A DNA stretch of 16,073 bases, taken from the IMG/VR virus record IMGVR_UViG_2667527592_000011, positions 1 through 16,073 of that record. One strand, written 5' to 3'. Positions 1-15,869 of this stretch are shown piece after piece (the stretch's first letter is position 1; the number at the start of each line of letters is the position of its first letter). The translations under genes were made by a program, and so were the position numbers. Below the pieces are notes generated by a model. The model was not told the DNA's origin. It worked only from the letters and a program-made list of their open reading frames with translations, and ran no database searches. The stretch is from a virus (taxonomy: Duplodnaviria > Heunggongvirae > Uroviricota > Caudoviricetes).

Positions 1-462
1 ATGCTGGGTGATTGTTTCCCTCCTGATTTTAAGGCTAATTTTAGTCGTGAAAGAGGTATATCACCCGGTGATGTATTGTATCTTCATTGTGATTTTACGA
101 CCCCACCTAAAGTAAAATATATGGTGGTTGTTTGCTGTGAACCTCTTTTAGTTCTTCTAATAAATTCAGATATAAATGAATTTATTAAGAGAAACAATGA
201 TCTTATGGCTTGTCAGGTCGAAATTAATAGAGAAGACCATGATTTTCTTAAATGGGACTCATTTGTTAATTGCATTGAGGCTCATGCTGCTTTCGATCTT
301 GAAATTATTAAAGAGAAAATAGCCATCCAATATGGTGACGTGCTAAAAGGTCGCATTACAGATCATTGTATGAGACAAGTTCGATGTGCAGTTGAGATAT
401 CTAAAACTATGGTTAAACGGCATAAAAAACTGATACTCGCTGCTCTTCAACATTATGAATAA
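1..462 (+). CDS. Hypothetical protein, AT-rich cargo gene (153 aa); may be 5'-truncated by the window edge
   Basis: ORF from ATG at position 1 to TAA at 460-462. Visibly AT-rich (about 35% GC by eye) against roughly 50% GC in neighbouring phage genes. Convergent with the leftward early operon and followed by a hairpin terminator. No family recognised; the N-terminal stretch RERGISPGDVLYLHCDF...KYMVVV only weakly recalls Kid/PemK/MazF-type N-termini (unverified). Confidence 0.5.
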   Translation: MLGDCFPPDFKANFSRERGISPGDVLYLHCDFTTPPKVKYMVVVCCEPLLVLLINSDINEFIKRNNDLMACQVEINREDHDFLKWDSFVNCIEAHAAFDLEIIKEKIAIQYGDVLKGRITDHCMRQVRCAVEISKTMVKRHKKLILAALQHYE

Positions 463-485
463 ACCCATCTTTGGATGGGTTTATT
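461..485. terminator. Bidirectional rho-independent-like terminator between convergent genes
   Basis: Perfect hairpin AAACCCATC (461-469) / GATGGGTTT (474-482) with a 4-nt loop, flanked by A/T-rich sequence on both sides; sits between the stop of the + strand gene and the stop of the - strand gene at 496. Confidence 0.5.
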
Positions 486-495
486 CATATTCTAT

Positions 496-768
496 TTAAA
501 TGAGCCTTTGTTTATGGGTTCTGACCCTTTCCCACTCAGCACGCCCTTCTTCTCGCCTTTTGTCTATGTATTCCGCAAGATCCTGAATATTGATGCAACG
601 TTTTGCTTTTTGTGATGTGCCGATGCGATATGTTGGAACGGGCAACTTACAAGCATTTGCTTTTGCCTCTGCCGTGGCTGGACTCATACCAAAGTACTTT
701 TGGCTAACTGCTGAGAGTTCAATGTTTGGGGTATTGAATTCAGCCATCAGTAAAAACAAGGTGTTCAT
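496..768 (-). CDS. Excisionase-like / PrtN-family DNA-binding protein (about 90 aa)
   Basis: Likely start is ATG at 768-766, preceded on the - strand by GGAG with a 6-nt spacer; the ORF track's longer form starts at a GTG at 795. Small basic protein (MNTLFLLMAEF...LPVPTYRIG...DLAEYIDKRR) at the distal end of the early-left operon, the usual xis position. Family assignment is from memory of PrtN/excisionase-like proteins. Confidence 0.5.
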   Translation of the reverse strand: MNTLFLLMAEFNTPNIELSAVSQKYFGMSPATAEAKANACKLPVPTYRIGTSQKAKRCINIQDLAEYIDKRREEGRAEWERVRTHKQRLI

Positions 769-804
769 AATTTTCTCCATCAAAACCGGCTGCACCCGGG
801 AAAA

Positions 805-1377
805 TCATAATTCTGTGCTGGTGGCAGGAATTAATTTCTGCCAGATAGCGGAAACATATTTTGCCTGATGACGGGCATCAGCCAGGGCGTTGTGCCGTTC
901 GCCATCGAAAGGCATGTCCATTTTGGGGTCGAATCCGATGGAACGCCCAAGCGTAACGATCGTGCGTACATCGTGGTCATTCCAGTATGCCCACGGGCAG
1001 ATTTGTCCTGCTCGCTCATAAGCTCCACGTAAAATTACGTTGTCGAAGGTGGCTCCGTTACCCCAGACTTTTAAATATTTCGTATTGTCTGCGTGCCGGT
1101 TAATGAAATGATTTAGTTCTGAGAGAGCATCGCTGATCGACAAAGTATCATCAATACAGATTGCAGCTCGTGCTTCAGGGCTTTGTTTCAACCACCACAG
1201 GATGGTATCGCCGTCAGGTGTAGCTCCTTGCACCATAGCACTTTCCAGGCTAACAACCGTATAGAATTCTTGTCCGATGTCTCCGGTTTCTGGAGTGAAG
1301 AACACCGCGCCAATGGAAACGATCGGTGCATCCTTATTTTTCCCCATCGTCTCAAGGTCGATCATTAAGTTGTTCAT
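805..1377 (-). CDS. DEDDh-family 3'-5' exonuclease (DnaQ-like, phage type)
   Basis: Exo I motif MIDLETMG (D-x-E) near the N-terminus and Exo III motif HNALADARH near the C-terminus. Start ATG at 1377-1375 overlaps the upstream stop (TGATG coupling). Confidence 0.75.
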   Translation of the reverse strand: MNNLMIDLETMGKNKDAPIVSIGAVFFTPETGDIGQEFYTVVSLESAMVQGATPDGDTILWWLKQSPEARAAICIDDTLSISDALSELNHFINRHADNTKYLKVWGNGATFDNVILRGAYERAGQICPWAYWNDHDVRTIVTLGRSIGFDPKMDMPFDGERHNALADARHQAKYVSAIWQKLIPATSTEL

Positions 1378-2111
1378 CACTTCACCTCCTGCGGCGGTTC
1401 CGGTAGCGGCATCCAGTGAGTTGCTTGCTCAATACCATTACCCGGCTTAATCGTTGCATCTCCGCGCCGAAAGGTGCTTCCGGTATAGCGTGCGGAGCAT
1501 ATTAGCGGTTCAACCAGAGAGCTATCGAAATTCACCGAAATAAGCACGTTCTGGCCCTTTTCAGGCATTCGATCACTACAGCTTATCCAACTATCCGGAG
1601 TTCCCGGAGAGTTGCCATTTACATCGAAGTTTGGCTCTGCGTCCTGAACCAAGAGGATGTAACCATTCTTGGCTGTATCAAGTTCTAACGCTTCGGTGAC
1701 GGTGCCGAAATAGCGATTACCTAAATCAGCATCACAAGTGCTTATATCAATGGAAACTTCCATGCCTTCGATTAATTCTGGCAAGTTGTAAGTTTGGCTT
1801 ACAGGTTGGCTACCCTGAAGCATGGCGGCGCGGTGACACCAGATAATCCAGCCAAGTGCCATATCCCATGCCATGTATTCTCTATCGCCATTTTTTGCCC
1901 TACGGCGATCTACAGATTCCCCGAAACGCTTCTCTATAAATAATTCATAGGCTGCTCGTTCATCCGATACTGCTGCCAGTGATGCCAGTGCAATTTTTAA
2001 TGCGGTAAGCATGTTGTTTTGATCTTCATCGAGTCCGAACGGTATTTCATCCCGTGCTGACTCAATGCTGGTAATCGTGTTCTGTAACCATTCTTTGGTA
2101 AGAGTATTCAT
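1377..2111 (-). CDS. Phage hypothetical protein with a DUF551-like C-terminal region
   Basis: 244-aa ORF; ATG at 2111-2109 preceded by AAGGTGA. C-terminal segment WISCSDRMPEKGQNVLI...HWMPLPEPP resembles the DUF551 signature (from memory). Confidence 0.55.
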   Translation of the reverse strand: MNTLTKEWLQNTITSIESARDEIPFGLDEDQNNMLTALKIALASLAAVSDERAAYELFIEKRFGESVDRRRAKNGDREYMAWDMALGWIIWCHRAAMLQGSQPVSQTYNLPELIEGMEVSIDISTCDADLGNRYFGTVTEALELDTAKNGYILLVQDAEPNFDVNGNSPGTPDSWISCSDRMPEKGQNVLISVNFDSSLVEPLICSARYTGSTFRRGDATIKPGNGIEQATHWMPLPEPPQEVK

Positions 2112-2113
2112 AA

Positions 2114-2305
2114 CTATTTCACCTTAATCTCAACATTTCGCAGCTTTAGCTCTACTGGCAAGTCTGACTTTCCTGTTAATGCTAATGCGAGATTTTCAGG
2201 AGTAATGAGAGCAGTTATTGTTTTCCCCATCGCCAGACGAATAATCATTCGTATCTCGCGATCGTCACATGCTCCCGGTCGAACAATTGATATTTGTCCG
2301 TTCAT
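2114..2305 (-). CDS. Small hypothetical protein (63 aa)
   Basis: ATG at 2305-2303 preceded by AGGAG; stop 2 nt before the next start; fits the tight coupling of the operon. The ORF-track version (2114-2386) extends upstream in the same frame without a ribosome-binding site. Confidence 0.4.
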   Translation of the reverse strand: MNGQISIVRPGACDDREIRMIIRLAMGKTITALITPENLALALTGKSDLPVELKLRNVEIKVK

Positions 2306-2306
2306 C

Positions 2307-2906
2307 TCACTCTCCTTTGATGCGAATGCCTGCGGCGCGTGGCACATTAACTTCCACGATGCGCACATTTGGTTTGTACATCTCAATCGCTGTCAGCCAG
2401 TCAGCGCCGGTCATATGCTTTTCTGCATCGCCATTAGTCCATTGAACCGGCACACCAATAGCTTTCATCGCAATTTCTATTTCCCCGGCAATGGCGCTTT
2501 TCCCGCAACCAGTAAAACCAGAGACAACGACAAGAACTTCGCCTTTGGCTGGTTTTATTTCCCGTGCTTCCAGTTCAGCAATACGCTTACTCCCATCCGA
2601 GATAACACCTTCGTAATACTCACGCTGCTCGTTGAGTTTTGATTTTGCTGCCTCCAGTTCGTCCAGTAGTGCAATCACATCAGGGTCACTGTCATCAACT
2701 ACTGTTACGCGTGATTTTTCATAATGCTCGTCGGCAAGTGTGCGACCAATTTTGAAATCTCCATCACCACCATAACTGGAGCAGGCATAAGTGACATGTG
2801 CTCCAGATATACGCTGTATTGACATTTCCTCGCCACAAACAGAGCATTCAGGTACTGGCTTAGGTGAATAACGTTCCCGTAGCGCCTGATAATCAATCTC
2901 GCTCAC
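2307..2906 (-). CDS. Hypothetical protein with an N-terminal Cys-rich (zinc-ribbon-like) segment and a C-terminal Walker-A-like motif
   Basis: GTG start at 2906-2904 overlaps the upstream TGA (GTGA) and is preceded by AAGGAGG. Residues CSVCGEE...YACSS and GFTGCGKS (G-x4-GKS). Possibly Ea22-like, unverified. Confidence 0.55.
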   Translation of the reverse strand: MSEIDYQALRERYSPKPVPECSVCGEEMSIQRISGAHVTYACSSYGGDGDFKIGRTLADEHYEKSRVTVVDDSDPDVIALLDELEAAKSKLNEQREYYEGVISDGSKRIAELEAREIKPAKGEVLVVVSGFTGCGKSAIAGEIEIAMKAIGVPVQWTNGDAEKHMTGADWLTAIEMYKPNVRIVEVNVPRAAGIRIKGE

Positions 2907-3388
2907 TGGTTGCCCTCCTTCATAAAAATAATCCAGTGGGTCTTGTCACCCTTTCCTGTTCGTTGACCGATAACAGGCTTTCTGTCGGTCAGTGCCAATA
3001 TCTGGCGAACAGGTATTTGCGTTTCATTCCATTTAAAAATCAGAACGCCGTATGGCCACAACACACGAAAGGCTTCTTTGAATCCTTGCCGTAAATCATC
3101 ACGCCGGGTATCTTTATTCAGCCGTCCATATTTCTTTCCCATCCAGGCGTTATCACCAACACGCTCAAGATGCGGAGGGTCGAATACAACCATCGAAAAG
3201 GATGCGTCTGCAAATGGTAGTGCACGAAAATCAGCTATCAGGTCAGGACTGATAATCAGGCGTCGTCCATCACACAATGTGTGCTCTTCCTTTCTGATAT
3301 CGCTAAATATCGCCCGGTCGTCATTCTTATCGAACCAGAACATGCGACTGCCACAGCACATGTCGAGGATTGCTGCATGTCCAGTCAC
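2903..3388 (-). CDS. Small putative DNA methyltransferase (YfdM-like)
   Basis: AdoMet-binding-like motif ILDMCCGS and catalytic-type motif VVFDPPH (DPP[YFH]). Preferred start is GTG at 3388-3386, preceded by AAGGAGG with a 7-nt spacer and overlapping the upstream TGA; an alternative ATG lies at 3421. Confidence 0.6.
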   Translation of the reverse strand: MTGHAAILDMCCGSRMFWFDKNDDRAIFSDIRKEEHTLCDGRRLIISPDLIADFRALPFADASFSMVVFDPPHLERVGDNAWMGKKYGRLNKDTRRDDLRQGFKEAFRVLWPYGVLIFKWNETQIPVRQILALTDRKPVIGQRTGKGDKTHWIIFMKEGNQ

Positions 3389-3927
3389 TGGCTGCCTCCT
3401 TTGCGAAGCCGTTCCGCCCATTCTTCAAGGGATTTCTCTGCATATTCACCGGACAGGCCATCAATCGGGTGCGGTTCATTAGCCAACTCTTCTTTCGCTG
3501 ACAGAATCATGCGCGTAACGTCGAAAACTTCACGTAAAGACTTATTGATAAATCCGTGGTTGAAAGCAGCAGCAAGACGGCTTGCGGTATAGTTAATCCC
3601 CTCGTTGCGCGCCTCCGCACGTATTTCAGCCAGGAAAGCGTCGGTGGCTGGCATATTTCCTGTTGCCTTCATGGCCTCCAAAATAACCAGAACGCCATCT
3701 CGCCCAACCTCCTCAGCGATAACCTCGGTGTTGTCGCCAACAACATCGCAGAATGCCTGAACCGCCTTACGAGCCAGTTCATTCTCCGCCGCAAGCGCCG
3801 AAATCTTAGCCTCCGCTTCAGCAAATTTACGCACCAGATACTCAGCATTTGTTTCATTCACTTTCAGATCTCGCGGTACACATTTCCCGCGAAGAAACCC
3901 TTCCATTTCGAAAACATTCATGCGCAT
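3385..3927 (-). CDS. Phage hypothetical protein (180 aa)
   Basis: ATG at 3927-3925 preceded by GGAG; translationally coupled on both sides; Ala/Glu-rich central segment suggests a coiled coil. No family recognised. Confidence 0.55.
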   Translation of the reverse strand: MRMNVFEMEGFLRGKCVPRDLKVNETNAEYLVRKFAEAEAKISALAAENELARKAVQAFCDVVGDNTEVIAEEVGRDGVLVILEAMKATGNMPATDAFLAEIRAEARNEGINYTASRLAAAFNHGFINKSLREVFDVTRMILSAKEELANEPHPIDGLSGEYAEKSLEEWAERLRKGGSQ

Positions 3928-4454
3928 TTGCGTAACTCCGATAACTCGTTAAAACGTTCCATAAACATCCCATAGGCATGGACTGGCGACAGTGGAATAA
4001 CTTTGAACATCTCTGTTGCCGGGATACCTTCCAGAACAGGCCAGAAAGAGCCATCATCAAGCCCGAGATCACGGCGTTCGGTTGCCAGCATAATGAGATC
4101 GGCATATTTCACTGGCGTGCTCATAACAGGAGGTAACCCGTATTTCTCACGGATTACGGCGTCTATTTTTTCTTCCATCCGTTTATAGTCAGGAAGAAGT
4201 CGTTTCAGTGGCGCGGGGATGTCCTGGCAATATGCTTCTGTTGCATCATGCATTAACGCTTCAAAAGCAAATTCCTGCGGCACCAGCTGGCTGCAAAGCA
4301 CCGCATGCTGGGCGACACTGTAGAAGTGTGAAAGATGTCCTGCAAAGCGACAGATATTTGAAAGGGAAACTGCGATATCGTTAATCACGATGTCGTCTTT
4401 ATTTATCTTGTCATAATAAAAATGCTTCCCGGAAAAAGTTTTAATAAATGACAT
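3918..4454 (-). CDS. HD-domain phosphohydrolase (YfdR-like 5'-deoxynucleotidase family), 178 aa
   Basis: HD signature: H in SVAQHAVLCSQL and HD in ALMHDATEAY. Preferred start ATG at 4454-4452 with GGAG 6 nt upstream; the ORF track's GTG at 4466 is less likely. Length matches YfdR of CPS-53 (from memory). Confidence 0.7.
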   Translation of the reverse strand: MSFIKTFSGKHFYYDKINKDDIVINDIAVSLSNICRFAGHLSHFYSVAQHAVLCSQLVPQEFAFEALMHDATEAYCQDIPAPLKRLLPDYKRMEEKIDAVIREKYGLPPVMSTPVKYADLIMLATERRDLGLDDGSFWPVLEGIPATEMFKVIPLSPVHAYGMFMERFNELSELRKCA

Positions 4455-4548
4455 TTCGTTCTCCACTTTATATGCGCTGCACCGCGCTGAATTCTGCTAA
4501 AAGGAAGCTCTCACCATCCGGTGATTATTGAGTTAATTACGTTTCCAT

Positions 4549-4570
4549 AAATGCCCCCGCAGGGGCATTT
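4549..4570 (-). promoter_or_regulatory. Intercistronic stem-loop just after the YfdQ-like stop (possible attenuator or RNA-stability element)
   Basis: Perfect 9-bp stem AAATGCCCC / GGGGCATTT with a 4-nt loop, 13 nt downstream of the stop at 4583-4585; only a short U-tract follows on the - strand transcript, so it is not a canonical terminator. Confidence 0.3.
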
Positions 4571-4582
4571 GCAGTAATGAAA

Positions 4583-5407
4583 TCAGGCGGTGAAAGTACC
4601 AATAAAGGTTTCTACTTTGCTGTCTTTGAATTTCTCAACAAGCAGATCACGAAATTCGTTAGCCATTTCTTCCTGCATCGCTTCCAGCTGAATAATGCGA
4701 AGAACCAGTACAGGACGATCGCCAGTGATAATGCTGAGGCGTAATTTAAACGGACGTTCTTTCAGGCCTTCAAACGGAACGCATTTAAATTCAAATGCCA
4801 CTGGCATAATGTCTTTGGTTTTCGCTTCGACAGACTCCATCAGAGAGCGTTTGCCGCTGAAGTCATTGTCTTCAAAATCAGCGGTCTGGTTTGCTTCAAT
4901 TGTGATTTTACGGACTGCCGCAGCCGCTTTGGTTGCCTGAATGGTGTCACCATTAGCATCAAAGCCCACAAGGTAGTCGGCCCAGTCTTCAATCCATTCT
5001 GCCAGTGACTTCTGGGAGTTACGCTCGCCATTAACAGACAACAGAGCAGAAAACGGTGCTGTCTTTTTCAGTTTGAGGGTGGCGGTGTTATCTGCGTGAC
5101 CTGGTTCATCAATAGTACCCAGGTTAAGCACACTGACGGCACGCATATTATCGGCATCGATAAAGCAGCGGGTGCCTTCATCTGCAAGATCTTTAGAATA
5201 ACGGGTAAAGTCATCGATGCTGGCAGTGGAAAGCGCACCACGGAAACGGAAGCGATTTAAATTAAATTTTTCCAGATCATGAATGCGGAAATTCTCAGGC
5301 AATGCCACTGCATCGGCACCAATCTTACTGATAATTTCATTAACACCCTGAGCAGAAATAAGGGCATGGATTTGATTAATTGCGGTTGCGTCTAAGTTCT
5401 GAGACAT
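4583..5407 (-). CDS. YfdQ-like protein (DUF2303 family), 274 aa
   Basis: ATG at 5407-5405 preceded by GAGGA; length and position next to YfdR-like and YfdP-like genes match CPS-53-type prophage order (from memory). Confidence 0.6.
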
Positions 5408-5472
5408 AATAAGTCCTCACTATATAAAGATATTCAGTGATGAGATAAATAATCAGTTTATTAATAACGATA

Positions 5473-5835
5473 TTAATGACCTGCTGCGCGTAGTTTTCCG
5501 TCAGGCTCACCGGCAAGAGTCAGTAATTGTCCCTGGTCTTCCTGCAGAATAGTCAGGCGACCACCGCGATTGACATACATCGGCGTTTCGGTGGTGTCTT
5601 CTTCGGAAATTTTCCCGCGGTTAGTCGGGCGAACATATGAGAGTTTGTGTTTGATTTTCACACGGTTCTCATCAAATGGTTCGATTTCCAGGTTGAGTGA
5701 GACCTTACCTTTGGTTTTCGTGTTCATCACACCGGAAGCGACTTCACTGAGAACTGCGCCGATTTTGGTTTCAAATACGCCGCCGTCCAGCTCCCCGATA
5801 AATGCCTGCACATCAGTACTGCGTTCGCTAGCCAT
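5473..5835 (-). CDS. YfdP-like hypothetical protein (120 aa), first gene of the leftward operon
   Basis: ATG at 5835-5833 preceded by AGGAG with an 8-nt spacer. The ORF-track version (5473-6021) extends upstream without a ribosome-binding site and is Cys/Arg-rich, so the shorter form is preferred. Confidence 0.55.
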   Translation of the reverse strand: MASERSTDVQAFIGELDGGVFETKIGAVLSEVASGVMNTKTKGKVSLNLEIEPFDENRVKIKHKLSYVRPTNRGKISEEDTTETPMYVNRGGRLTILQEDQGQLLTLAGEPDGKLRAAGH

Positions 5836-5884
5836 TTTGCTGCTCCTCATCATATCGACCCTGCAAGGTCGGTTGGTTTCTCCA

Positions 5885-5982
5885 CAAAACAGAGAAGAAC
5901 ACTTGCGGTGGCAGCCGCCCGGATGGATTGGGTTATCAGCTCGTCGTCCGGTGATGCTCTTCTCTGTTTTGTAAAAAGAGCG
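5885..5982 (-). promoter_or_regulatory. boxA-like motif followed by a long imperfect hairpin in the PL leader (candidate antitermination or termination RNA element)
   Basis: On the - strand transcript: CGCTCTTTTTA (reverse complement of 5972-5982), resembling lambda/rrn boxA, immediately followed by a 14-bp stem CAAAACAGAGAAGA / TCTTCTCTGTTTTG (5885-5898 with 5958-5971) enclosing a 59-nt loop with internal GCGG/CCGC and CCGGA/TCCGG pairings. Confidence 0.3.
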
Positions 5983-6176
5983 GTACCAGCCGGAAGCAAG
6001 TGTACAAACTGGTACCGCCAAAGCAGTGGCTGTTGTGGTGACCGGTGCTGATCTCCGGCATGCGGTTATTTCAGACTCTCACGGGCATTTAATTGCCCCG
6101 CCGAACAGCTCTTTTCCGCAATAGCTGCAATGTCTTTCGCGCATCAGCCTGCGCATTCACCACAACTCTAAAAACA

Positions 6177-6230
6177 AATGTAGGATATCCAACATGTGGG
6201 TGTCAAGAGTTTATGTTGGTTATCCTACAT
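6177..6230 (-). promoter_or_regulatory. OL/PL: leftward early promoter with overlapping operators
   Basis: On the - strand: TTGACA (reverse complement of 6201-6206), 17-nt spacer, CTACAT (reverse complement of 6178-6183). 18-bp operator ATGTAGGATATCCAACAT (6178-6195) overlaps the -10; a second copy ATGTTGGTTATCCTACAT lies at 6213-6230. Confidence 0.55.
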
Positions 6231-6246
6231 AAAAAGATAGGCTCAT

Positions 6247-6273
6247 AAAAAAAACCGGGGATACCCCGGTTTT
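6247..6273 (-). terminator. Rho-independent terminator downstream of the repressor gene
   Basis: CCGGGG-ata-CCCCGG hairpin (6255-6269) flanked by an A8 run (6247-6254) and a T4 run (6270-6273); on the - strand the stem is followed by nine U residues, about 20 nt after the cI-like stop. Confidence 0.6.
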
Positions 6274-6293
6274 GCGATAGTGAGGAAGATGTG

Positions 6294-6947
6294 TCAAAAA
6301 TCCATTATTACTTGTTTGACAAGACCAACTATTCTGCAGTTCTCACCGCATTCAATAGTTTTATAGTTAGGATTTAGTGGGACGAGATACCTGTTCGGCC
6401 AGTCCTCAACAAATTTTTTGAGTGTCGCTTCTTGCCCACCATTGATATGGGCAACAACGATTTTTCCGTTAATACACTCTGTATCAATAATATCTGGCTC
6501 TACGATAACGATAGAACCTTCTGGTATCGATGGTGAGCCGAGGGGATTGGTCATTGAATCACCACGGACCCGTAGTGCAAATGCCATTTCTGATACAAGG
6601 GCGGTAGTATAAACCCACTCTTCAGCATCTTCTTTCCTGACACCAGGCTCCGTCATTGTCCATGAACCCGCCTGAACCCACGAGATAAGGGGGACTTTTT
6701 TAACTGCGAATATTTCAGGTTTTAGATTTATCTTTGGTTCAGGCGAGCCTTTTCCGCTAACAAGCCACAGAGGATCGCATTTAAGTGCGTTGGCTAGGGC
6801 TTGAAGGTTGGCTCCATTTGGTTGGTAGTCGTCCTTTTCCCATCCAGTAACCGTGACGCGGTTCACACCAGTCAAATCAGCCAGTGCTTGTTGTGTCAGG
6901 TTCAGTTCTTTTCGCCTTTGGCGAATACGATCACTCATGTTCATCAT
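6294..6947 (-). CDS. cI: CI-like prophage repressor (HTH_XRE N-terminal domain + S24 LexA-like peptidase domain)
   Basis: N-terminal HTH (LTQQALADLTGVNRVTVTGWE); Ala-Gly cleavage-site candidate (WVQAGSW); catalytic Ser in RGDSM and Lys in ATLKKF. Divergent from a cro-like gene across the operators; no ribosome-binding site, possibly leaderless as for lambda cI from PRM. Confidence 0.85.
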   Translation of the reverse strand: MMNMSDRIRQRRKELNLTQQALADLTGVNRVTVTGWEKDDYQPNGANLQALANALKCDPLWLVSGKGSPEPKINLKPEIFAVKKVPLISWVQAGSWTMTEPGVRKEDAEEWVYTTALVSEMAFALRVRGDSMTNPLGSPSIPEGSIVIVEPDIIDTECINGKIVVAHINGGQEATLKKFVEDWPNRYLVPLNPNYKTIECGENCRIVGLVKQVIMDF

Positions 6948-7011
6948 GTAGGCAATCCTACCACATGCCCATGTAGGATTCTTGACATTGGTATGTTGGA
7001 TATCCTACATT
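6946..7011 (+). promoter_or_regulatory. OR/PR: rightward early promoter with three operator-like sites
   Basis: TTGACA (6982-6987), 17-nt spacer, CTACAT (7005-7010). Operators: ATGTTGGATATCCTACAT (6993-7010, over the -10), ATGTAGGATTCTTGACAT (6971-6988, over the -35) and a degenerate site ATGTAGGCAATCCTACCACAT (6946-6966) overlapping the cI start codon; spacing about 21-22 bp. Confidence 0.6.
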
Positions 7012-7042
7012 TCTGCTTAACGTAATTTAACGGGAGGCAGAA

Positions 7043-7240
7043 ATGCGGAAATCCGACGTGATTAATTATTTCGGCGGAGTTTGTAAAACCGCCGAAGCCC
7101 TAGGTATTAAGCATCCGTCTGTTTCAGAGTGGCCTGAGATTATTCCTGAAGGCCGAGCGTACCAGTTAGAAAAAATTACTAACGGGAAACTGAAAGTTGA
7201 CGTGTCTTTATATCAAAAGACTAACAGTGCTGCGGCATAA
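7043..7240 (+). CDS. cro: Cro-like repressor (P22 Cro family)
   Basis: 65 aa; GGGAGG 5 nt upstream of the ATG. MRKSDVINYFGG...ALGI...SVSEWPEIIPEGRAYQLEKITNGKLKV closely parallels P22 Cro (MYKKDVIDHFG...ALGISDAAVSQWKEVIPEKDAYRLEIVTAGALK, from memory). Divergent from the cI-like gene. Confidence 0.8.
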   Translation: MRKSDVINYFGGVCKTAEALGIKHPSVSEWPEIIPEGRAYQLEKITNGKLKVDVSLYQKTNSAAA

Positions 7241-7267
7241 AAACACCACAGAAATGAGGAATTAACC

Positions 7268-7852
7268 GTGGGTAAAGAACCTGAATGGAAAGTTGATAAA
7301 CAGCCAGCATGGCTGGTGGCAGCAATACGAAGAACGATTGCTGATTTACCTCATGGTTATGAGGAAGCAGCAGAAATTCTTGGTTTGTATAAATCTGATG
7401 ATATCACCCCAGCAAAAGATCAATTGCATAACAGACTGCGTAGCGGTGGGGATCAAATTTTTCCACTTGAGTGGGCCATGGTTTTACAGGATGCCAGTGG
7501 TACCAGGCATGTAACGGATGCAATAGCCCGTCGTAGTAATGGGGTGTTTGTGCCGCTGGTGGTCATTGATGACATTGACAATGGTGACATTAATCAGCGG
7601 CTGATGGAGTCAATAGAATGGATTGGCAAGCATTCCCAGTACTTACGCAAGGCAACTGCTGATGGAGTTATTGACCAGGCTGAGCGTGAGCAAATCGAAG
7701 AGAACAGCTACCAAGTAATGGCGAAGTGGCAGGAGCATTTAACACTGTTATTTCGTGTTTTTTGTGCGCCGGAAAAGAGTAACGCCCGCGAGTGTGCAGC
7801 TCCGGGCGTCGTGGCGTCGATTGCTTCTGGTTGTGGAGAAACTAACGCATGA
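7268..7852 (+). CDS. Hypothetical regulator at the cII position (possibly YmfL/CII-like)
   Basis: GTG start at 7268 preceded by GAGGA; 194-aa ORF immediately after cro. Family is inferred from position and recollection only; the C-terminal 35 residues are Cys/Ala-rich and of doubtful validity. Confidence 0.45.
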
Positions 7853-8187
7853 ACAGTTTAACAACACACTACCGTCGCTCGCAACTGATTGCGCTTCCTG
7901 TACCGGGTGGAAAAGCGAAGGTGGAGTATTGCTATGCAGTAAATGTACCAGGTGGCAGGGTAATTGTAACCCACAGCTTTGCAGAGTGGGCTGTGGGTGA
8001 TTTCAACCGGCAGAAGGAGACAGTCCTTTGCGACAAGTTAACCGCTGGTTCAAAGATCACTACGGAGTGCCCGTCAGAGTCATTCGTTGGGAGCCGGAAA
8101 CACAACGGGTTATCTACCTCCGCGAAGGTTATGAGCATGAATGCTTCAGTCCGCTCGAACAGTTTCGTCGTAAATTCAGGGAAATAG
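7849..8187 (+). CDS. YmfM-like protein (112 aa), possible SOS-associated cell-division inhibitor; 3' half has a competing reading frame
   Basis: ATG at 7849 overlapping the upstream stop (ATGA); length and position (after the cII-position gene, before the O-like gene) match e14 ymfM (from memory). The 3' third is Ser/Thr/Asn-rich low-complexity sequence, while another frame over 8001-8207 reads protein-like. Confidence 0.4.
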
Positions 8188-8196
8188 AGGTCGGTC

Positions 8197-9138
8197 ATGA
8201 GCACTAAATTAACCGGCTATGTATGGGATGGTTGCGCTGCATCAGGCATGAAGTTATCCAGCGTGGCAATTATGGCCCGCCTGGCTGATTTCAGTAATGA
8301 CGAAGGTGTGTGCTGGCCATCAATTGAAACCATTGCCCGTCAGATTGGCGCGGGGATGAGTACCGTCAGAACGGCTATCGCACGGCTGGAAGCAGAAGGC
8401 TGGTTAACGCGTAAGGCGCGTCGCCAGGGTAACCGCAATGCGTCGAATGTTTATCAGCTTAACGTTGCGAAGCTTCAGGCAGCGGCATTTTCTCAACTGT
8501 CAGATTCTGACCCGTCAAAATCTGACGCATCAAAATCTGACCCGTCAAAATTTGATGCGTCGAAATCTGGCAAAAAAGCGGGTTTTCACCCGTCAGAATC
8601 TGGCGGGGATCCGTCAGTAAAATCAAAACATGATCCGTCAGATAAAAAACCTTCTCGTCCGGACGCTTCGCAACCGGACACGCAGACGGCTGAACAGGAG
8701 TTTTTAACTCGCCATCCTGATGCGGTTGTATTCAGTCCTAAAAAGCGCCAGTGGGGAACGCAGGATGATTTGACCTGCGCACAGTGGCTCTGGAAAAAAA
8801 TCATCGCTCTGTACGAGCAGGCCGCTGAATGTGACGGCGAAGTGGTACGTCCTAAAGAACCGAACTGGACAGCCTGGGCAAACGAAATTCGCCTGATGTG
8901 TGTACAGGATGGGCGTACTCACAAACAAATCTGCGAGATGTACAGCCGCGTCAGCCGCGATCCGTTCTGGTGCCGTAACGTGCTCAGCCCGTCGAAGCTG
9001 CGGGAAAAATGGGATGAGCTTTCCCTGCGCTTATCGCCGTCCGTCAGCACGTACACAGAAAAACGCGAAGATCCGTACTTCAAAGCCAGTTACGACAATG
9101 TGGACTACAGCCAGATCCCGGCAGGATTCAGGGGGTGA
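8197..9138 (+). CDS. Replication initiation protein, O-like (N-terminal winged-helix DNA-binding domain, iteron-encoding repeat linker)
   Basis: GAGG 7 nt upstream of the ATG. N-terminal HTH region (SVAIMARLADFSNDEGVCWPSIETIARQIGAGMSTVRTAIARLEAEGWL); central repeat PSKSD/ASKSD/PSKFD/ASKSG encoded by 15-bp direct repeats; follows the cro, cII-position and ymfM-like genes as oweE does in e14. Confidence 0.7.
   Translation: MSTKLTGYVWDGCAASGMKLSSVAIMARLADFSNDEGVCWPSIETIARQIGAGMSTVRTAIARLEAEGWLTRKARRQGNRNASNVYQLNVAKLQAAAFSQLSDSDPSKSDASKSDPSKFDASKSGKKAGFHPSESGGDPSVKSKHDPSDKKPSRPDASQPDTQTAEQEFLTRHPDAVVFSPKKRQWGTQDDLTCAQWLWKKIIALYEQAAECDGEVVRPKEPNWTAWANEIRLMCVQDGRTHKQICEMYSRVSRDPFWCRNVLSPSKLREKWDELSLRLSPSVSTYTEKREDPYFKASYDNVDYSQIPAGFRG
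8514..8650 (+). repeat. Iteron-like direct repeats inside the O-like gene (candidate phage replication origin)
   Basis: Four tandem 15-bp units CCGTCAAAATCTGAC / GCATCAAAATCTGAC / CCGTCAAAATTTGAT / GCGTCGAAATCTGGC (8514-8573), further CCGTCAG-containing copies to about 8643, then an A-rich tract GATAAAAAACC. Confidence 0.55.
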
Positions 9139-9140
9139 TT

Positions 9141-9629
9141 ATGAGTCTTTTGAATGAAGTTCAGAAATTCATTGAAGCCCATCCGGGGTGTACTTCCGGA
9201 GACATTGCGGATGCTTTGGCAGGTTACTCACGGCAGCGCGTTCTGCAGTCAGCAAGCAAGTTACGTCAGAGTGGGCGTGTGGCTCACCGTTGTGAAGGAG
9301 ATACACGCAGACATTTCCCACGCCTGACTGAGAGAGCGCAGGAGCCGGAACCACAACCAGTTCGTGAAACCAGACCTGTGCGCAATTTCTATGTCGGCAC
9401 TAACGATCCCCGGGTGATTTTGTGCCTGACCCGCCAGGCTGAAGAACTGGAGTCAAGGGGCTTATACCGTCGTGCTGCAACGGTGTGGATGGCGGCATTC
9501 CGTGAAAGCCACTCCCAGCCAGAACGAAACAATTTTCTGGCGCGTCGTGAGCAGTGTTTACGGAAAAGCAGCAAGCGTGCTGTATCGGGTGATGAGTGGT
9601 ATCTGTCAGGGAATTACGTGGGGGCTTAA
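9141..9629 (+). CDS. PerC/Pch-family transcriptional regulator homolog with an N-terminal winged-helix-like extension
   Basis: Preferred start ATG at 9141 (GGGGGTGA upstream); the ORF track starts at a GTG at 9135. C-terminal signature GLYRRAATVWMAAF...FLARREQCL resembles the PerC motif GLWRRAA..W...RR..C (from memory). Confidence 0.55.
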   Translation: MSLLNEVQKFIEAHPGCTSGDIADALAGYSRQRVLQSASKLRQSGRVAHRCEGDTRRHFPRLTERAQEPEPQPVRETRPVRNFYVGTNDPRVILCLTRQAEELESRGLYRRAATVWMAAFRESHSQPERNNFLARREQCLRKSSKRAVSGDEWYLSGNYVGA

Positions 9630-10282
9630 TGAGTAATAAATATTGCCAGGAGCTGGTGGAACTGCGGAACAAACCAGCCCATGAACTGAAGGAAGTGGGC
9701 GATCAGTGGCGCACGCCGGACAACATTTTCTGGGGAATTAACACCCTGTTTGGCCCGTTTGTTCTGGATCTGTTCACTGACGGTGATAACGCCAAATGTG
9801 CTGCGTATTACACGGCGGAAGACAACGCGCTGGCGCATGACTGGTCAGAACGTCTTGCGGAGCTTAAAGGTGCTGCCTTTGGTAATCCCCCATACAGCCG
9901 CGCCAGTCAGCATGAGGGGCAATACATCACTGGCATGCGTTACATCATGAAGCATGCCAGTGCCATGCGTGATAAGGGCGGGCGCTATGTTTTCCTGATC
10001 AAAGCTGCCACCAGCGAAGTGTGGTGGCCGGAAGATGCGGACCATATTGCTTTTATTCGCGGGCGTATTGGTTTTGAACTGCCTGTCTGGTTTATCCCGA
10101 AAGACGAGAAGCAGGTACCGACAGGCGCTTTCTTCGCTGGTGCTATTGCTGTTTTCGACAAGACCTGGAAGGGACCGGCAATCAGCTACATCGGGCGCGA
10201 TGAACTTGAGGCATGTGGTGAGGCGTTTTTGGCGCAGGTTCGCCAGCAGGCAGAAAAACTTGTCAGGGAGATGGCGGCATGA
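9629..10282 (+). CDS. Phage Dam-type DNA N6-adenine methyltransferase
   Basis: Catalytic motif FGNPPYS (NPPY). ATG at 9629 overlaps the upstream TAA (TAATG); the ORF-track extension from 9596 has no ribosome-binding site. 217 aa. Confidence 0.75.
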   Translation: MSNKYCQELVELRNKPAHELKEVGDQWRTPDNIFWGINTLFGPFVLDLFTDGDNAKCAAYYTAEDNALAHDWSERLAELKGAAFGNPPYSRASQHEGQYITGMRYIMKHASAMRDKGGRYVFLIKAATSEVWWPEDADHIAFIRGRIGFELPVWFIPKDEKQVPTGAFFAGAIAVFDKTWKGPAISYIGRDELEACGEAFLAQVRQQAEKLVREMAA

Positions 10283-10605
10283 CGACGTTAACTCAATGCC
10301 AGCAGCAGGTGCTGGATATGCTGATTTCTTACCAGCAAGAGCGTGGCTTTCCGCCAACCAATCAGGAGGTGGCAACCATGCTGGGATACCGTTCAGTGAA
10401 TGCAGCGGTGGAGCATCTTCGCGCACTGGAGAAAAAAGGCGTCATCACGATAAAGCGTGGCGTGGCCCGGGGGATCACGCTTCATACCGCAGTGAAGGAC
10501 GACGACAGCGAAGCGGTCGGTATCATCCGCGCACTGCTTGCCGGTGAGGAGAACGCTAGGTTGCGTGCAGCCCACTGGTTACATGAGAGGGGCCTGAAAG
10601 TATGA
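10279..10605 (+). CDS. LexA DNA-binding-domain-only protein (no S24 peptidase domain)
   Basis: LTQCQQQVLDMLISYQQERGFPPTNQEVATMLGYRSVNAAVEHLRALEKKGVITIKRGVARGITL parallels the E. coli LexA N-terminus ([65 protein letters not shown], from memory). Only 108 aa, so the cleavage site and Ser/Lys dyad are absent. ATGA overlaps on both sides. Confidence 0.7.
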   Translation: MTTLTQCQQQVLDMLISYQQERGFPPTNQEVATMLGYRSVNAAVEHLRALEKKGVITIKRGVARGITLHTAVKDDDSEAVGIIRALLAGEENARLRAAHWLHERGLKV

Positions 10606-10991
10606 AGTTGATCCTTCCTTTCCCGCCCAGTGTGAACACGTACTGGCGACACCCCAACAAAGGGGCATTTGCTGGTAAGAGCCTGATAAGCGAGGTGGGG
10701 CGAAAATTTCAGAGCGCGGCGTGCGCAGCAATAGTTGAGCAGTTACGTCGTCTGCCGAAACCAACGTCGGCACCTGCTTCAGTGGAGATCGTGTTGTTTC
10801 CGCCGGATAACCGGATCCGTGATCTGGACAACTATAACAAGGCGCTGTTTGACGCCCTGACCCACGCGGGTGTGTGGGAAGACGACAGACAGGTGAAAAG
10901 AATGCTGGTGGAGTGGGGACCGGTTATCCCGAAAGGGAAGGTCGAGATCACTATCAGTAAGTACGAGAAAACGGCGGGTGCAGCCGCCTGA
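10602..10991 (+). CDS. rusA: RusA-family Holliday junction resolvase
   Basis: 129 aa; PFPPSVNTYWRH and DLDNYNKALFDALTHAGVWEDDRQV match the RusA signature (PWPPSNNRYYRH, DLDN...FDALT); GAGAGGGG upstream of the ATG. Confidence 0.85.
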   Translation: MKLILPFPPSVNTYWRHPNKGAFAGKSLISEVGRKFQSAACAAIVEQLRRLPKPTSAPASVEIVLFPPDNRIRDLDNYNKALFDALTHAGVWEDDRQVKRMLVEWGPVIPKGKVEITISKYEKTAGAAA

Positions 10992-11010
10992 TTAAGAGGA
11001 GAAACGAAGT

Positions 11011-11820
11011 ATGAATAATCTGATGGTCATTGATGGTATTGAAGTTCGTCGTGATGCTTATGGGCGTTACAGCCTGAACGATCTGCATCGCGCAGCAGTA
11101 GCATCTGGTGCAAATGCCAGAACCAAGGAGCCAGGAAAGTTTCTTTCCAGCCAACAAACTGTTGAGCTTGTTCATGAATTGACCAACACCCAGAATTTGG
11201 GTGTTGACCCGGTGAGTGTGATTCATGGGGGAAATGAACGGGGAACGTATGTCTGCAAGGAACTGGTGTATGCCTATGCAATGTGGATCAGCCCGTCATT
11301 CCATCTGAAGGTGATCCGTACTTTCGATATGGTAACCAGCGCACCGGAAAAATTATCCGGGCAGGCTGCTGACAAGATGCAGGCTGGTGTGATTCTGCTG
11401 GACTTTATGCGCAGGGAGTTAAACCTGTCTAACTCATCAGTGCTTGGTGCCTGTCAGAAACTCCAGGAGGCTGTTGGCTTACCGAATCTGGCACCGCGCT
11501 ATGCTATTGATGCTCCTGCTGACGCGCCTGATGGCTCAAGTCGCCCCACGCTGTCGCTGAGTGCACTGCTGAAACAGTATGGTATCCGCCTTACGGCTAA
11601 TCAGGCATATCACCAGATGGTGAAGCTGGGGATCGTCGAGCAGCGCGAACGATACAGCCGTACCGCGATTAACAACATCAAAAAATTCTGGTCGCTGACA
11701 GCGAAAGGCTGCATGTTCGGCAAGAACATCACCAGTCCCGCAAATCCGCGCGAGACGCAGCCGCATTTCTTCGAATCCCGATTCCCTGAGCTGTTAAAGC
11801 TGCTCGATACCGTTCATTGA
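11011..11820 (+). CDS. KilA-N domain protein
   Basis: Strong ribosome-binding site AAGAGGAG; N-terminal KilA-N-like region (VIDGIEVRRDAYGRYSLNDLHRA...VIHGGNERGTYVCKELVYAYAMWISPSFHLKVI). Confidence 0.65.
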   Translation: MNNLMVIDGIEVRRDAYGRYSLNDLHRAAVASGANARTKEPGKFLSSQQTVELVHELTNTQNLGVDPVSVIHGGNERGTYVCKELVYAYAMWISPSFHLKVIRTFDMVTSAPEKLSGQAADKMQAGVILLDFMRRELNLSNSSVLGACQKLQEAVGLPNLAPRYAIDAPADAPDGSSRPTLSLSALLKQYGIRLTANQAYHQMVKLGIVEQRERYSRTAINNIKKFWSLTAKGCMFGKNITSPANPRETQPHFFESRFPELLKLLDTVH

Positions 11821-11821
11821 G

Positions 11822-12817
11822 GTGACTGTGAGAGCACTACTGACCCCTGAAATTGCCCCGCGTATGGGGATCGTATTGTTCAGACCTGGTTCAGAGCTGA
11901 TGCCCCTGTTTATGCAGGGGCGTGTCCTGCTGGAGCCTGAGCCGGAACGTTATTCATCTTTTGCCAGTGGTGCCGTTCCGGCGGCATCACAACCGCTGGC
12001 GGATGATCCTGTCGTTCGGGCCGTGTTCCGCAATGAGGCAGTGATCCGTCGTGCTGGTGGCGTGGAATGTCTTGAAAGCTGGTTACTTCGTGAAAAGGGC
12101 TGTCAGTGGCCTCATTCCGACTGGTACAGCGAGAACATTACCACAATGCGACACGCTCCGGGCGCAATCCGTCTGTGCTGGCACTGCGATAACCAGCTGC
12201 GCGATCAGTTCACGGAACGGCTGGAATCAATGGCAACGGATAACTGTGCCCGCTGGGTGTTGTCTGTTGTGCGTCGGGATCTCGGTTTTGATGATAGTCA
12301 CGTTGTGACAATGCCGGAACTGTGCTGGTGGCTGATTCGTCATGATCTGGCGGATGCCTTACCGGAAAGTGCAGCCCGTAAGGCACTGAGATTACCAAAG
12401 CCTGTTGTGCCGTCTGTCACCCGGGAAAGTGACCTTGTGCCTTCGGTTCCTGCCACCAGCATCATCCAGGATAAGGCAAAAAAGGTGCTGGCGCTGAAAG
12501 TGGATCCGGAGTCGCCGGAGTCTTTTATGTTACGCCCAAAACGTCGCCGCTGGGTTAATGAAAAGTACACGCGCTGGGTTAAGACGCAGCCGTGTGCATG
12601 TTGTGGAAAGCCTGCTGATGATCCCCACCACCTGATAGGTCACGGTCAGGGTGGAATGGCTACAAAAGCGCATGACCTCTTTGTGTTGCCTTTGTGCAGA
12701 AAGCATCACGACGAGCTGCATGCGGATACCGTGGCATTTGAAGAGAAGTATGGCTCCCAGCTGGAGCTGATATTTCGTTTTATCGATCGTGCGCTGGCAA
12801 TAGGCGTGCTGGCCTGA
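11822..12817 (+). CDS. DUF968 / NinG-like protein with a C-terminal HNH-type Cys/His motif (YdfU-like)
   Basis: C-terminal CACCGKP...DPHHLIGHGQGG...LPLCRKHHDELH; sits directly upstream of Q as ydfU does in Qin (from memory). Start is uncertain: GTG at 11822 or 11828. Confidence 0.6.
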   Translation: MTVRALLTPEIAPRMGIVLFRPGSELMPLFMQGRVLLEPEPERYSSFASGAVPAASQPLADDPVVRAVFRNEAVIRRAGGVECLESWLLREKGCQWPHSDWYSENITTMRHAPGAIRLCWHCDNQLRDQFTERLESMATDNCARWVLSVVRRDLGFDDSHVVTMPELCWWLIRHDLADALPESAARKALRLPKPVVPSVTRESDLVPSVPATSIIQDKAKKVLALKVDPESPESFMLRPKRRRWVNEKYTRWVKTQPCACCGKPADDPHHLIGHGQGGMATKAHDLFVLPLCRKHHDELHADTVAFEEKYGSQLELIFRFIDRALAIGVLA

Positions 12818-12834
12818 TTTTGTGGAGAAAGTTG

Positions 12835-13206
12835 ATGCGTGATATTCAAATGGTTCTTGAACGTTGGGGGGCATGGGTGGCAAATAATCACGAGGATGTG
12901 GAATGGTCATCTGTTGCTGCAGGTTTTAAGGGATTAATTCCTTCGAAAGTAAAATCCCGCCCGCAATGTAGCGATGACGATGGCCTGATCATTAGCTCTG
13001 CGATGACAGTTCTTAAGAAAAAGGAACCGTATCAATACGAATTACTGGAAATGTATTATGTGTATGGGGTTACATTACGGGCGTTGGGGGTAAAACTGGG
13101 GATATCACTTAATCAGGTTGTTATCAGACTGCAGAAAGCTGAAGGGTTTATTGACGGTTGTCTGGCAATGTTGGGGGTATCTTTAGAAATTGATTGTTAC
13201 ATATAG
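12835..13206 (+). CDS. Q-type late-gene antiterminator (phage 21 / DLP12 QuuD-like family)
   Basis: ATG at 12835 with GGAG 8 nt upstream; N-terminus MRDIQMVLERWGAW...SKVKSRPQC...RLQKAEGFIDG parallels QuuD-type Q proteins (from memory). The ORF track's TTG at 12820 is less likely. Confidence 0.7.
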   Translation: MRDIQMVLERWGAWVANNHEDVEWSSVAAGFKGLIPSKVKSRPQCSDDDGLIISSAMTVLKKKEPYQYELLEMYYVYGVTLRALGVKLGISLNQVVIRLQKAEGFIDGCLAMLGVSLEIDCYI

Positions 13207-13281
13207 TAATAAATTCAATCAAAGTAAATAATCATATTTTATTATAACCTCCTGATGATACCTGTTCATTGGGAGGTTATT

Positions 13282-13899
13282 ATGGATAAAAATGTAGAGC
13301 ATGTATTAGTTGATGCAATTGAAAATAAGCAATCTTTAACAGTCGTTTACTTAGGAGGGAGCCAGCCCGGAACATTAAGGAATATTTCTCCGATTAGTAT
13401 AAATGGGGATAAATTGCGGGCAAGATGCCATAGTTCTGGAGCAGTAAAGGTTTTCAATCTTGGGAAAATACAGTTACCCAGTGACTCCTGCGCGGTATCT
13501 ATGCACTATGGAGATTTAGAAGTTAAAGCTTATGAGACGATGCAGAGCGTAAATGACAACTTTCATGCCCTTTATCCTGAAGGACGATGGGGTGTTGATT
13601 TTAATGAGCATCGCTTTGCTTTATTTGATTTTTTTAAAAACGGGAAACGAAAAAAAACGGCATTTATGGCAATTGAGTTCAGGGAAAGAGATGAAGAGAA
13701 AATAATAACAGGTGTAACAATTGATATTGGTATATCTGGAACAGTGATTTCTGAGAAGTCCCGAATCCCAAAAAGACGACCATGGGTAGTGGTTGGTCCC
13801 GAACACGGAGAATACAGTACTTATTCAACTTTGGACAAGGCTGCTACAGCGTTTTTTGAGAGGCTATCGTTGATAGCATCCGGCCTGGAAGATAATTGA
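13282..13899 (+). CDS. Hypothetical protein, AT-rich cargo (moron) gene, 205 aa, unknown function
   Basis: GGGAGG 5 nt upstream of the ATG at 13282; stop TGA at 13897-13899. Markedly AT-rich (about 38-40% GC by eye) and Lys/Ile/Asn-rich against its flanks; lies between Q and the holin, the usual cargo slot of lambdoid phages. No recognisable catalytic motif. Confidence 0.6.
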   Translation: MDKNVEHVLVDAIENKQSLTVVYLGGSQPGTLRNISPISINGDKLRARCHSSGAVKVFNLGKIQLPSDSCAVSMHYGDLEVKAYETMQSVNDNFHALYPEGRWGVDFNEHRFALFDFFKNGKRKKTAFMAIEFRERDEEKIITGVTIDIGISGTVISEKSRIPKRRPWVVVGPEHGEYSTYSTLDKAATAFFERLSLIASGLEDN

Positions 13900-14028
13900 T
13901 TTTATGTTTGGTATTCAGAGTTCGCCGTGCTTAAGAAAGTCAAGATTCTAAAAATACTGAATGAGCTACTTGTGTTATAACAAAAATGCTATTAGTGTGT
14001 TAAGAGTGGTTACTTCGCCACACAACTT

Positions 14029-14054
14029 AAACCCGCCACTGAGCGGGTTTTTTG
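14029..14054 (+). terminator. Rho-independent terminator (end of the cargo gene transcript, or tR'-like)
   Basis: CCCGC (14032-14036), loop cactga, GCGGG (14043-14047), then T6 (14048-14053). Confidence 0.6.
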
Positions 14055-14175
14055 TACCTGTAAACTTGGTGCAGTACAGTAAACACGCTGGTGGTCGTGA
14101 ATACTGACTTTTTATCTTGCTGGCTTTTTAGACAAGAGTTATTGGTATGTTATGTTAACCAGAAGGGAAAAAGAC

Positions 14176-14379
14176 ATGCTAAAACAGCAAGATATGACAG
14201 AAACCGCCGCCGCAGTCCTTCATTTCTTACCTGCTGACAAGTGGGTAACGCCACGCATGATGACGAGAACTACCGGAGTAAGCGAAGCCCGGTGCCAGTT
14301 AATACTGACTCAGTTAGTTCTGGCGGGTCTGGCGAAGGATAACGGCGGGTACGGGAATAAATTCAGACGCTGCCAGTAA
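14176..14379 (+). CDS. Small hypothetical protein (67 aa), possibly a winged-helix DNA-binding protein
   Basis: ATG at 14176 preceded by AGAAGGGAAA; the ORF-track form starts at 14152. Segment TPRMMTRTTGVSEARCQLILTQLVLAGLAKDNGGYGNKF has an HTH-like character; directly upstream of a methyltransferase gene. Confidence 0.4.
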   Translation: MLKQQDMTETAAAVLHFLPADKWVTPRMMTRTTGVSEARCQLILTQLVLAGLAKDNGGYGNKFRRCQ

Positions 14380-14529
14380 TGGCGGTTTCCTGCTGTGAAA
14401 ATGGGCGGCTGGTGGGTGTTGGTAGCACCTGCCAGCCATTCGCTCATGCTTACTGGTCACAAGCGAACCACGGCCCACTGCTTTAGCGCAAAAGCAGAGT
14501 GAGCCTACCAGAGTTACGCTTACTGATCC

Positions 14530-15582: not shown

Positions 15583-15586
15583 TCTG

Positions 15587-15612
15587 GTGGCCACGTCAGG
15601 TGGCCTTTTTAT
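15587..15612 (+). terminator. Rho-independent terminator after the methyltransferase gene
   Basis: GGCCAC (15590-15595), loop gtcag, GTGGCC (15601-15606), then T5 (15607-15611), 8 nt after the stop. Confidence 0.55.
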
Positions 15613-15649
15613 TTCCATTACACAGCACCCGCATCTGCGAGGTGGGGTT

Positions 15650-15865: not shown

Positions 15866-15869
15866 TTCA

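Follow-up and report, generated by a model that had tools for sequence, protein, structure and literature searches.

A predicted PanA-PanT toxin-antitoxin cassette at the attL end of a dusA-integrated lambdoid prophage of Escherichia coli

Introduction

Panacea-domain antitoxins (PanA) and 88 clusters of their toxins (PanT) were defined by Kurata et al. (2022; PMC8832971). Here we describe a gene pair assigned to this group. The second gene of the pair, panT, occupies the first 462 bases of a 16,073 nt stretch of caudoviral DNA (IMG/VR record IMGVR_UViG_2667527592_000011, positions 1 to 16,073; this whole stretch is called the window in the following), and the first gene, panA, lies immediately outside it.

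The described group to which the pair was compared most closely is cluster T5. In Dataset S1 of Kurata et al., the Photorhabdus heterorhabditis protein WP_054475897.1 is listed as a T5 toxin with the gene order A|T and a 'noNTD' PanA. A T5 representative is reported to match EndoA/MazF (99.5%) and CcdB (98%) in HHpred searches (PMC8832971). In E. coli, the Chryseobacterium bovis toxin of this cluster was shown to be toxic (PMC8832971, Table S1). Two other PanTs that HHpred predicts to be MazF-like, from Pseudomonas moraviensis (T6) and from Bifidobacterium ruminantium (T25), were validated as selective translation inhibitors that are neutralised by their PanA, and for the P. moraviensis toxin, binding to the cognate PanA was seen in a pull-down (PMC8832971). 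According to Kurata et al., these two toxins belong to homology clusters different from T5. Direct neutralisation by stand-alone Panacea domains was demonstrated as well, and it was suggested that Panacea may act as a sensor (Ernits et al., 2023; PMC10440598).

Results and discussion

The panA-panT gene pair

The gene at the left edge of the window is the following:

1-462, + strand: panT-like gene, ATG at base 1, TAA at 460-462, 153 codons

We interpret this open reading frame (ORF) and the gene preceding it as a type II PanA-PanT toxin-antitoxin (TA) cassette, in which the toxin is a predicted MazF-fold endoribonuclease that would be held by direct binding of PanA. To this reading we assign a probability of roughly 0.7. 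The E. coli pair is an uncharacterised example of a family predicted in 2022 and not a new kind of system, and its finding will not surprise a TA specialist.

To identify the upstream gene, three carrier genomes (E. coli CFS3292, DA33137 and AST240) were inspected. In all three, panA is located on the same strand as panT, with its TGA stop codon 5 nt ahead of the ATG of panT. The initial annotation had supposed that any partner gene, such as an antitoxin, would lie upstream of the window, and it is indeed there that the PF13274 gene was found. Its product of ~175-193 amino acids (aa), annotated in RefSeq as 'Panacea domain-containing protein', matches PF13274 (SocA_Panacea) with 72.9 bits (cut-off 25.7) and has no further domain. 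A Panacea-domain (PF13274/DUF4065) gene on the same strand at no more than 100 nt from a candidate toxin, the arrangement by which PanAT pairs are recognised, is thus present. As this partner lies outside the window, panT cannot be interpreted from the window alone. In locus L001, where panA occupies positions 7414-7995, RefSeq gives two starts, for products of 193 aa or 189 aa. An alignment with homologues points to the internal Met19 (MLNVRFDSEKALEA...) as the true start, and the protein would then have ~175 aa. Upstream of panA, a sigma-70-like site matching the consensus at 9/12 positions is present at L001 7372-7401 (consensus match only).

The toxin gene is complete and not truncated by the window edge, because the same 153-aa protein is found in RefSeq (WP_000900143.1, annotated 'hypothetical protein') with its start exactly at window base 1, the preceding gene stops 5 nt earlier, and an in-frame upstream extension is limited to three codons, ending at TTG. 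A continuation of the ORF into a known phage gene, which had been considered before, was therefore not found; the stop codon directly ahead is that of the Panacea-domain gene.

Loci with toxin homologues were scanned with hidden Markov models built for the toxin family and from four PanA sequences. All 28 testable loci have a PanA-like ORF directly upstream of the toxin gene and in the same orientation, with spacings ranging from an overlap of a few bases to a gap of ~40 nt; one further locus, which begins at a contig end, was excluded from these 28. They include loci of Photorhabdus, Proteus, Serratia, Atlantibacter, Idiomarina, Marinimicrobium, Gallionellaceae, Acidobacteriota, Chloroflexi, Ca. 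Vecturithrix and a Serratia phage. The same order was obtained for two more distant members (P0150 and P0100), giving 30 loci in all from several phyla and one Serratia phage, and precomputed Pfam annotation revealed the same arrangement in Idiomarina and in a marine integrase island. A two-gene architecture that recurs across species, on which the reciprocity criterion of Kurata et al. is based, is therefore seen for this pair, and a homologue is scored 5|5 in Dataset S1 (PMC8832971).

The link to cluster T5 is provided by the P. heterorhabditis protein WP_054475897.1, which falls into the same 90% cluster as homologue P0033, and P0033 is 53% identical to the ORF (E 9e-51). The E. coli/Salmonella prophage version of the toxin was not found in the parts of Dataset S1 available to us (PMC8832971). 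Like the T5 PanATs, the pair consists of a Panacea-only antitoxin directly upstream of the toxin, in the order A|T and with a gap of a few nt. Like the T5 PanTs, its toxin has ~150 aa, no CDD/Pfam domain and a MazF/EndoA-like fold.

Among sequenced phage genomes, no toxin homologue was detected besides that of Serratia phage vB_SspS_OS31 (L008 3444-4474). This homologue is 46% identical, and the pair is flanked by the Q antiterminator and the lysis genes, a cargo slot different from that in E. coli.

Several copies of the pair have lost the toxin. In the Photorhabdus loci L065, L068, L074 and L075, which belong to several species, the toxin gene is broken and panA is intact. In the E. coli O166:H15/AST lineage (AST240, L079 901-1406), the A-run that follows window position 315 is longer by one A, which shifts the reading frame after residue 106, again with panA intact, and the frameshifted 112-aa toxin product was found on 82 contigs. 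Loss of the toxin with retention of the antitoxin, as read from these sequences, is consistent with toxicity of PanT.

Two observations concern the surroundings of the pair in metagenomes. On the marine contigs L004-L007 (3120-3816, 4490-5471), PanA-PanT is located in an integrase-flanked island after a ParE-toxin/helix-turn-helix pair, and two TA modules therefore lie side by side. On two unrelated metagenomic contigs (L080 710-1795 and L083 3342-4079), an SNase-domain gene follows the toxin homologue directly on the same strand, which may be a coincidence or a recurrent third gene.

Predicted fold and candidate active site of PanT

Searches of Pfam and NCBIfam, as well as phmmer against PDB sequences, returned no match for the 153-aa ORF. 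The PADLOC candidate PDC-M02B (12 bits, E 0.016) and a PHROGs family of unknown function (17 bits) were treated as noise, and the single match of the toxin-family profile to PDB sequences was judged a chance hit. Homologues are nevertheless numerous. Close homologues of 148-157 aa (41 in total) occur in Enterobacterales and beyond, and homologues of 152-157 aa with 42-77% identity were found in many genera. With the toxin-family profile, 1,249 clusters (50% identity) were obtained at E ≤ 1e-3 and 626 at E ≤ 1e-10. This large family has no Pfam model.

The idea that the ORF encodes nothing and is open by chance in AT-rich DNA of foreign origin might be raised by its low GC content, the lack of a Pfam or NCBIfam family and its annotation as 'hypothetical protein' only. 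It is refuted by the conservation of the ORF, as seen in the identities and cluster numbers given above, the conserved synteny with panA and the confident fold described below, and its probability is practically negligible.

The AF2 model of the 153-aa protein has a pLDDT of 91. In the structural comparison, the ten best matches were all MazF/Kid endoribonucleases (scores 11.1-8.4), among them Staphylococcus aureus MazF with 98 aligned residues at 23% identity. Lower scores were obtained for other toxins, namely 7.7 for CcdB and 6.8, 5.0 and 4.6 for the type III toxins CptN, AbiQ and ToxN. In a Foldseek search of viral structures (BFVD), the two top matches were annotated 'Endoribonuclease' and 'PemK-like protein' (probability 1.00, E 2.5e-3). 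According to the model, the panT product has a MazF/Kid-type fold, with the SH3-like barrel common to MazF- and CcdB-type toxins. The parts of the modelled protein are:

Residues ~20-135: core barrel
Residues 2-17: extra N-terminal helix
Residues 60-69 and 100-114: helical inserts
Residues 139-148: last helix, also extra

A faint likeness to Kid/PemK/MazF toxins had been noted before for the N-terminal segment. The model bears out the likeness and not its confinement to the N-terminus, since the whole MazF core (~residues 20-135) is similar. A function can thus be hypothesised for a 'hypothetical' protein that is encoded in at least 46 complete E. coli genomes and is also present in Salmonella.

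PanT differs from the classical MazF/PemK/Kid/EndoA toxins in several respects. It has no PF02452 match, is ~40 residues longer, and contains the N-terminal helix, the helical inserts and the extra C-terminal helix. The loop between strands 1 and 2 is much shorter than in classical MazF, and in the profile alignment Lys and Asn take the places of the catalytic Arg and Thr. Its partner is a Panacea protein, whereas MazF, PemK and Kid are paired with MazE, PemI and Kis.

Over 174 family members, K39 and S87 are conserved in 100%, N55 in 99%, C91 in 98%, L83 in 97%, F82 in 94%, S56 in 93% and K37 in 92%, and N55 is followed by Ser or Thr at position 56. A MAFFT profile merge with E. coli MazF and Bacillus subtilis EndoA gave the following equivalences:

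G23-D24: E. coli MazF G10-D11; EndoA none
K39: E. coli MazF R29; EndoA R25
N55-S56: E. coli MazF T52-T53; EndoA T48 (N55 only)
D86-S87: E. coli MazF none; EndoA D72-S73 (conserved Asp-Ser)

Arg25 and Thr48 are essential for catalysis by MazF-bs (PMC10893535). In ToxN, the site consists of Lys33, Thr52, Ser53 and Lys55, and Arg replaces Lys33 in some clusters (PMC8860590). As ToxN uses Lys33, a Lys-based site in a MazF/ToxN fold has a precedent. Lys39, Asn55-Ser56 and Asp86-Ser87 form a candidate RNase site of PanT, for which this chemistry is plausible judging from the aligned residues.

Proposed mechanism and alternatives

In the proposed mechanism, both genes would be driven by one promoter located ahead of panA, and transcription would end at the hairpin at 454-489. 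PanA would neutralise PanT by direct binding via its Panacea domain, as PanA has no extra N-terminal neutralising domain. PanT, which probably inhibits translation by cleaving RNA, would act once freed from PanA as a ribosome-independent, MazF-like endoribonuclease, cutting RNA of the cell or of phages and bringing translation to a halt. Lysogen or prophage might benefit, either because infections by other phages are aborted or because the prophage is stabilised.

Several points weigh against this reading. In the only T5 test, the PanA of C. bovis was itself toxic, so that neutralisation within T5 was not established (PMC8832971). The ORF and 57 sampled family members have no Pfam match to PF02452 (PemK_toxin) at E ≤ 1, and Foldseek against the PDB gave no significant result (best MazF match E 0.42, TM 0.61). 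A profile-profile comparison by hhalign of the 174 family members with 18 MazF sequences, for which diverse MazF were drawn from viral contigs, produced a collinear full-length alignment with a weak score (probability 3.6%, P 0.012), and no match was found with shallower alignments. The residue equivalences given above stem from sequence-profile alignment and not from structural superposition; in hhalign, the placement of N55 on T52 agrees and K39 is one residue off the catalytic Arg. Since the canonical catalytic Arg and Thr of MazF are replaced by Lys39 and Asn55, RNase chemistry is not assured. As to a role in defence, PADLOC contains no model for PanA or PanT, and no defence phenotype is known for the pair, which is predicted here from its genes.

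Some of these points bear on the question whether the pair is a growth-arresting TA system at all. PanT could be non-toxic on its own and serve as a phage-triggered effector with PanA as sensor, or the pair could be a decayed or domesticated remnant. This would agree with the finding, which likewise weighs against the main reading, that several MazF-like or 'mRNase' PanT candidates were non-toxic in E. coli, including one from an E. coli prophage and a T1 one from a Salmonella phage (PMC8832971), with the proposal of Ernits et al. (2023; PMC10440598) that Panacea is mainly a sensor, and with the circulation of frameshifted toxin copies. We consider it unlikely, because the family of 1,249 clusters keeps its length and a set of polar positions that never vary, a sign that an activity is under purifying selection, the sole tested T5 member is toxic, and loss of the toxin with retention of the antitoxin is what a real toxin predicts. 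It is also rather improbable that PanT is a toxin of MazF/CcdB fold which is neutralised by PanA and is not an RNase, with another target (e.g. DNA gyrase) or an action by binding. CcdB itself obtained a lower structural score than MazF and has a different antitoxin, and the residues at the RNase positions are conserved in PanT; CcdAB, characterised by a CcdA-type partner and gyrase poisoning, does not describe the pair.

The Panacea domain also calls to mind SocAB, a type VI system, after which PanA would be a proteolytic adaptor that delivers the toxin to ClpXP instead of sequestering it. SocA is the founding Panacea-domain antitoxin and its model is the only NCBIfam match of the upstream protein, yet the SocA equivalog NF047745 reaches only 17.4 bits against a cut-off of 190, the toxin is MazF-fold and has no recognisable relation to SocB, and stable complexes were obtained for all five PanAT pairs examined in pull-downs, as expected for type II (PMC8832971), so that this is very improbable. 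A type III system was excluded: ToxN, AbiQ and CptN toxins are neutralised by tandem-repeat RNA, whereas the partner of PanT is protein-coding, and neither tandem repeats (L001 7150-8550) nor an Rfam family were found.

Returning to the PanA-neutralised endoribonuclease, a more far-reaching proposal can be made tentatively. The T5 family, with at least 1,249 50%-identity clusters, might represent a separate branch of the MazF/ToxN fold in which Lys39, Asn55, Ser87 and Cys91 give a substrate or chemistry other than that of classical mRNA interferases, and together with PanA it might constitute a phage-sensing abortive-infection module in an attL hotspot that swaps Panacea-effector cassettes. 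For the cleavage target of a Lys/Asn-type MazF-fold toxin and its release from PanA, the E. coli pair would offer a convenient model in its native host.

Genomic setting of the cassette

The features of the window around and beyond panT are:

1-505: window part of a low-GC cargo cassette; right boundary with the conserved prophage backbone at ~506-518
454-489: hairpin overlapping the panT stop codon, perfect 16-bp stem and 4-nt loop; separates panT from the xis-like gene
496-768, - strand: PrtN-family excisionase-like gene (PF11112, 82.2 bits), part of the backbone and not of the cassette

The initial annotation described a strongly AT-rich ORF on the + strand at 1-462, convergent with the leftward early operon. 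Both statements hold, as the GC content of the ORF is 0.346 compared with 0.485 for window positions 506-16073, and the PF11112 gene is encoded on the opposite strand. The GC content of the xis-like gene is 0.436 and that of the exonuclease gene 0.483. Beyond the left edge of the window, the cassette extends for a further ~730 bp, which include panA and end at a dusA-fragment attL, and its overall GC content is 0.386 (locus L001).

Bases 1-505 were present at ≥98% identity in 46 of 5,426 complete E. coli genomes. All 46 copies are chromosomal and each adjoins a PrtN-type gene; a search of plasmids revealed no copies of the cassette. The adjacent xis/exonuclease backbone is carried by 741 of the 5,426 genomes. 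Matches to sequenced phages and to the best-matching prophages begin at base 496-518, and homology to mEp460 and related prophages sets in at about base 506-518. Upstream of panA, only a 5' fragment of dusA is found, corresponding to the prophage attL, and no integrase is present at the attL end in the inspected carrier loci. In the free phage mEp460, the order is int, two cargo genes on the + strand, and xis, which places the cassette between attP and xis.

Other genes occupy the same slot in related prophages and phages. In DEC9B and mEp460, it contains hypothetical genes for 177 aa and 57 aa (L077 3639-4542; L076 2519-3422). In GU2018_CL13 (L078, NZ_AP029000.1, 1547-3921), it contains a different Panacea gene with 29% identity and a CoiA-like gene, together with ORFs of 128 aa and 57 aa, and the 128-aa protein weakly matches the C-terminal half of the toxin-family profile (11.6 bits). 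The prophage is lambdoid and integrated in dusA, and the cassette is exchangeable cargo at its attL end. That panT is an accessory gene in a cargo slot, as had been proposed, is borne out by its presence in 46 genomes compared with 741 for the backbone and by the alternative genes in related prophages; the slot, however, lies between attL and xis and not between integrase/excisionase and the early genes. For lambdoid prophages that integrate in dusA, a slot flanked by attL and xis is thereby documented that houses alternative Panacea-linked cassettes, and its contents fit the idea that PanA swaps partners at prophage hotspots.

The hairpin at 454-489 has a folding dG of -21.6 kcal/mol on the + strand and -20.2 kcal/mol on the - strand (z = -7.4 and -7.7, respectively), and none of 200 shuffled sequences folded equally well. 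A T-rich tail (490-500) follows it on the + strand, and a terminator scan called a terminator on this strand alone. It is therefore a predicted intrinsic terminator for panA-panT. On the - strand, a U-rich tail requires, as we read the sequence, that only the inner GC stem (CCCATC/GATGGG) is formed and that the outer A/T-rich arm serves as tail. It is possible that the hairpin also terminates the convergent xis transcript, so that its earlier description as bidirectional is supported by a called terminator for the + strand and remains plausible for the - strand, by way of the inner GC stem only.

The counterpart of the excisionase-like gene in phage mEp460 is annotated 'excisionase'. Beyond this gene, a 3'-5' exonuclease gene and then the leftward early genes follow, and the rest of the window is a lambdoid immunity and early region encoding an S24-peptidase repressor, a P22-type Cro, a CII-like protein, KilA-N, DUF968 and a methylase. 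At 12950-13950, the GC content is again low (0.34-0.39). This second patch contains a 214-aa ORF without Pfam match (13255-13899, + strand), with the DUF968/HNH-like gene on one side and the DNA methylase gene on the other. The title of the initial annotation implies another 'AT-rich gene', by which this ORF is probably meant.
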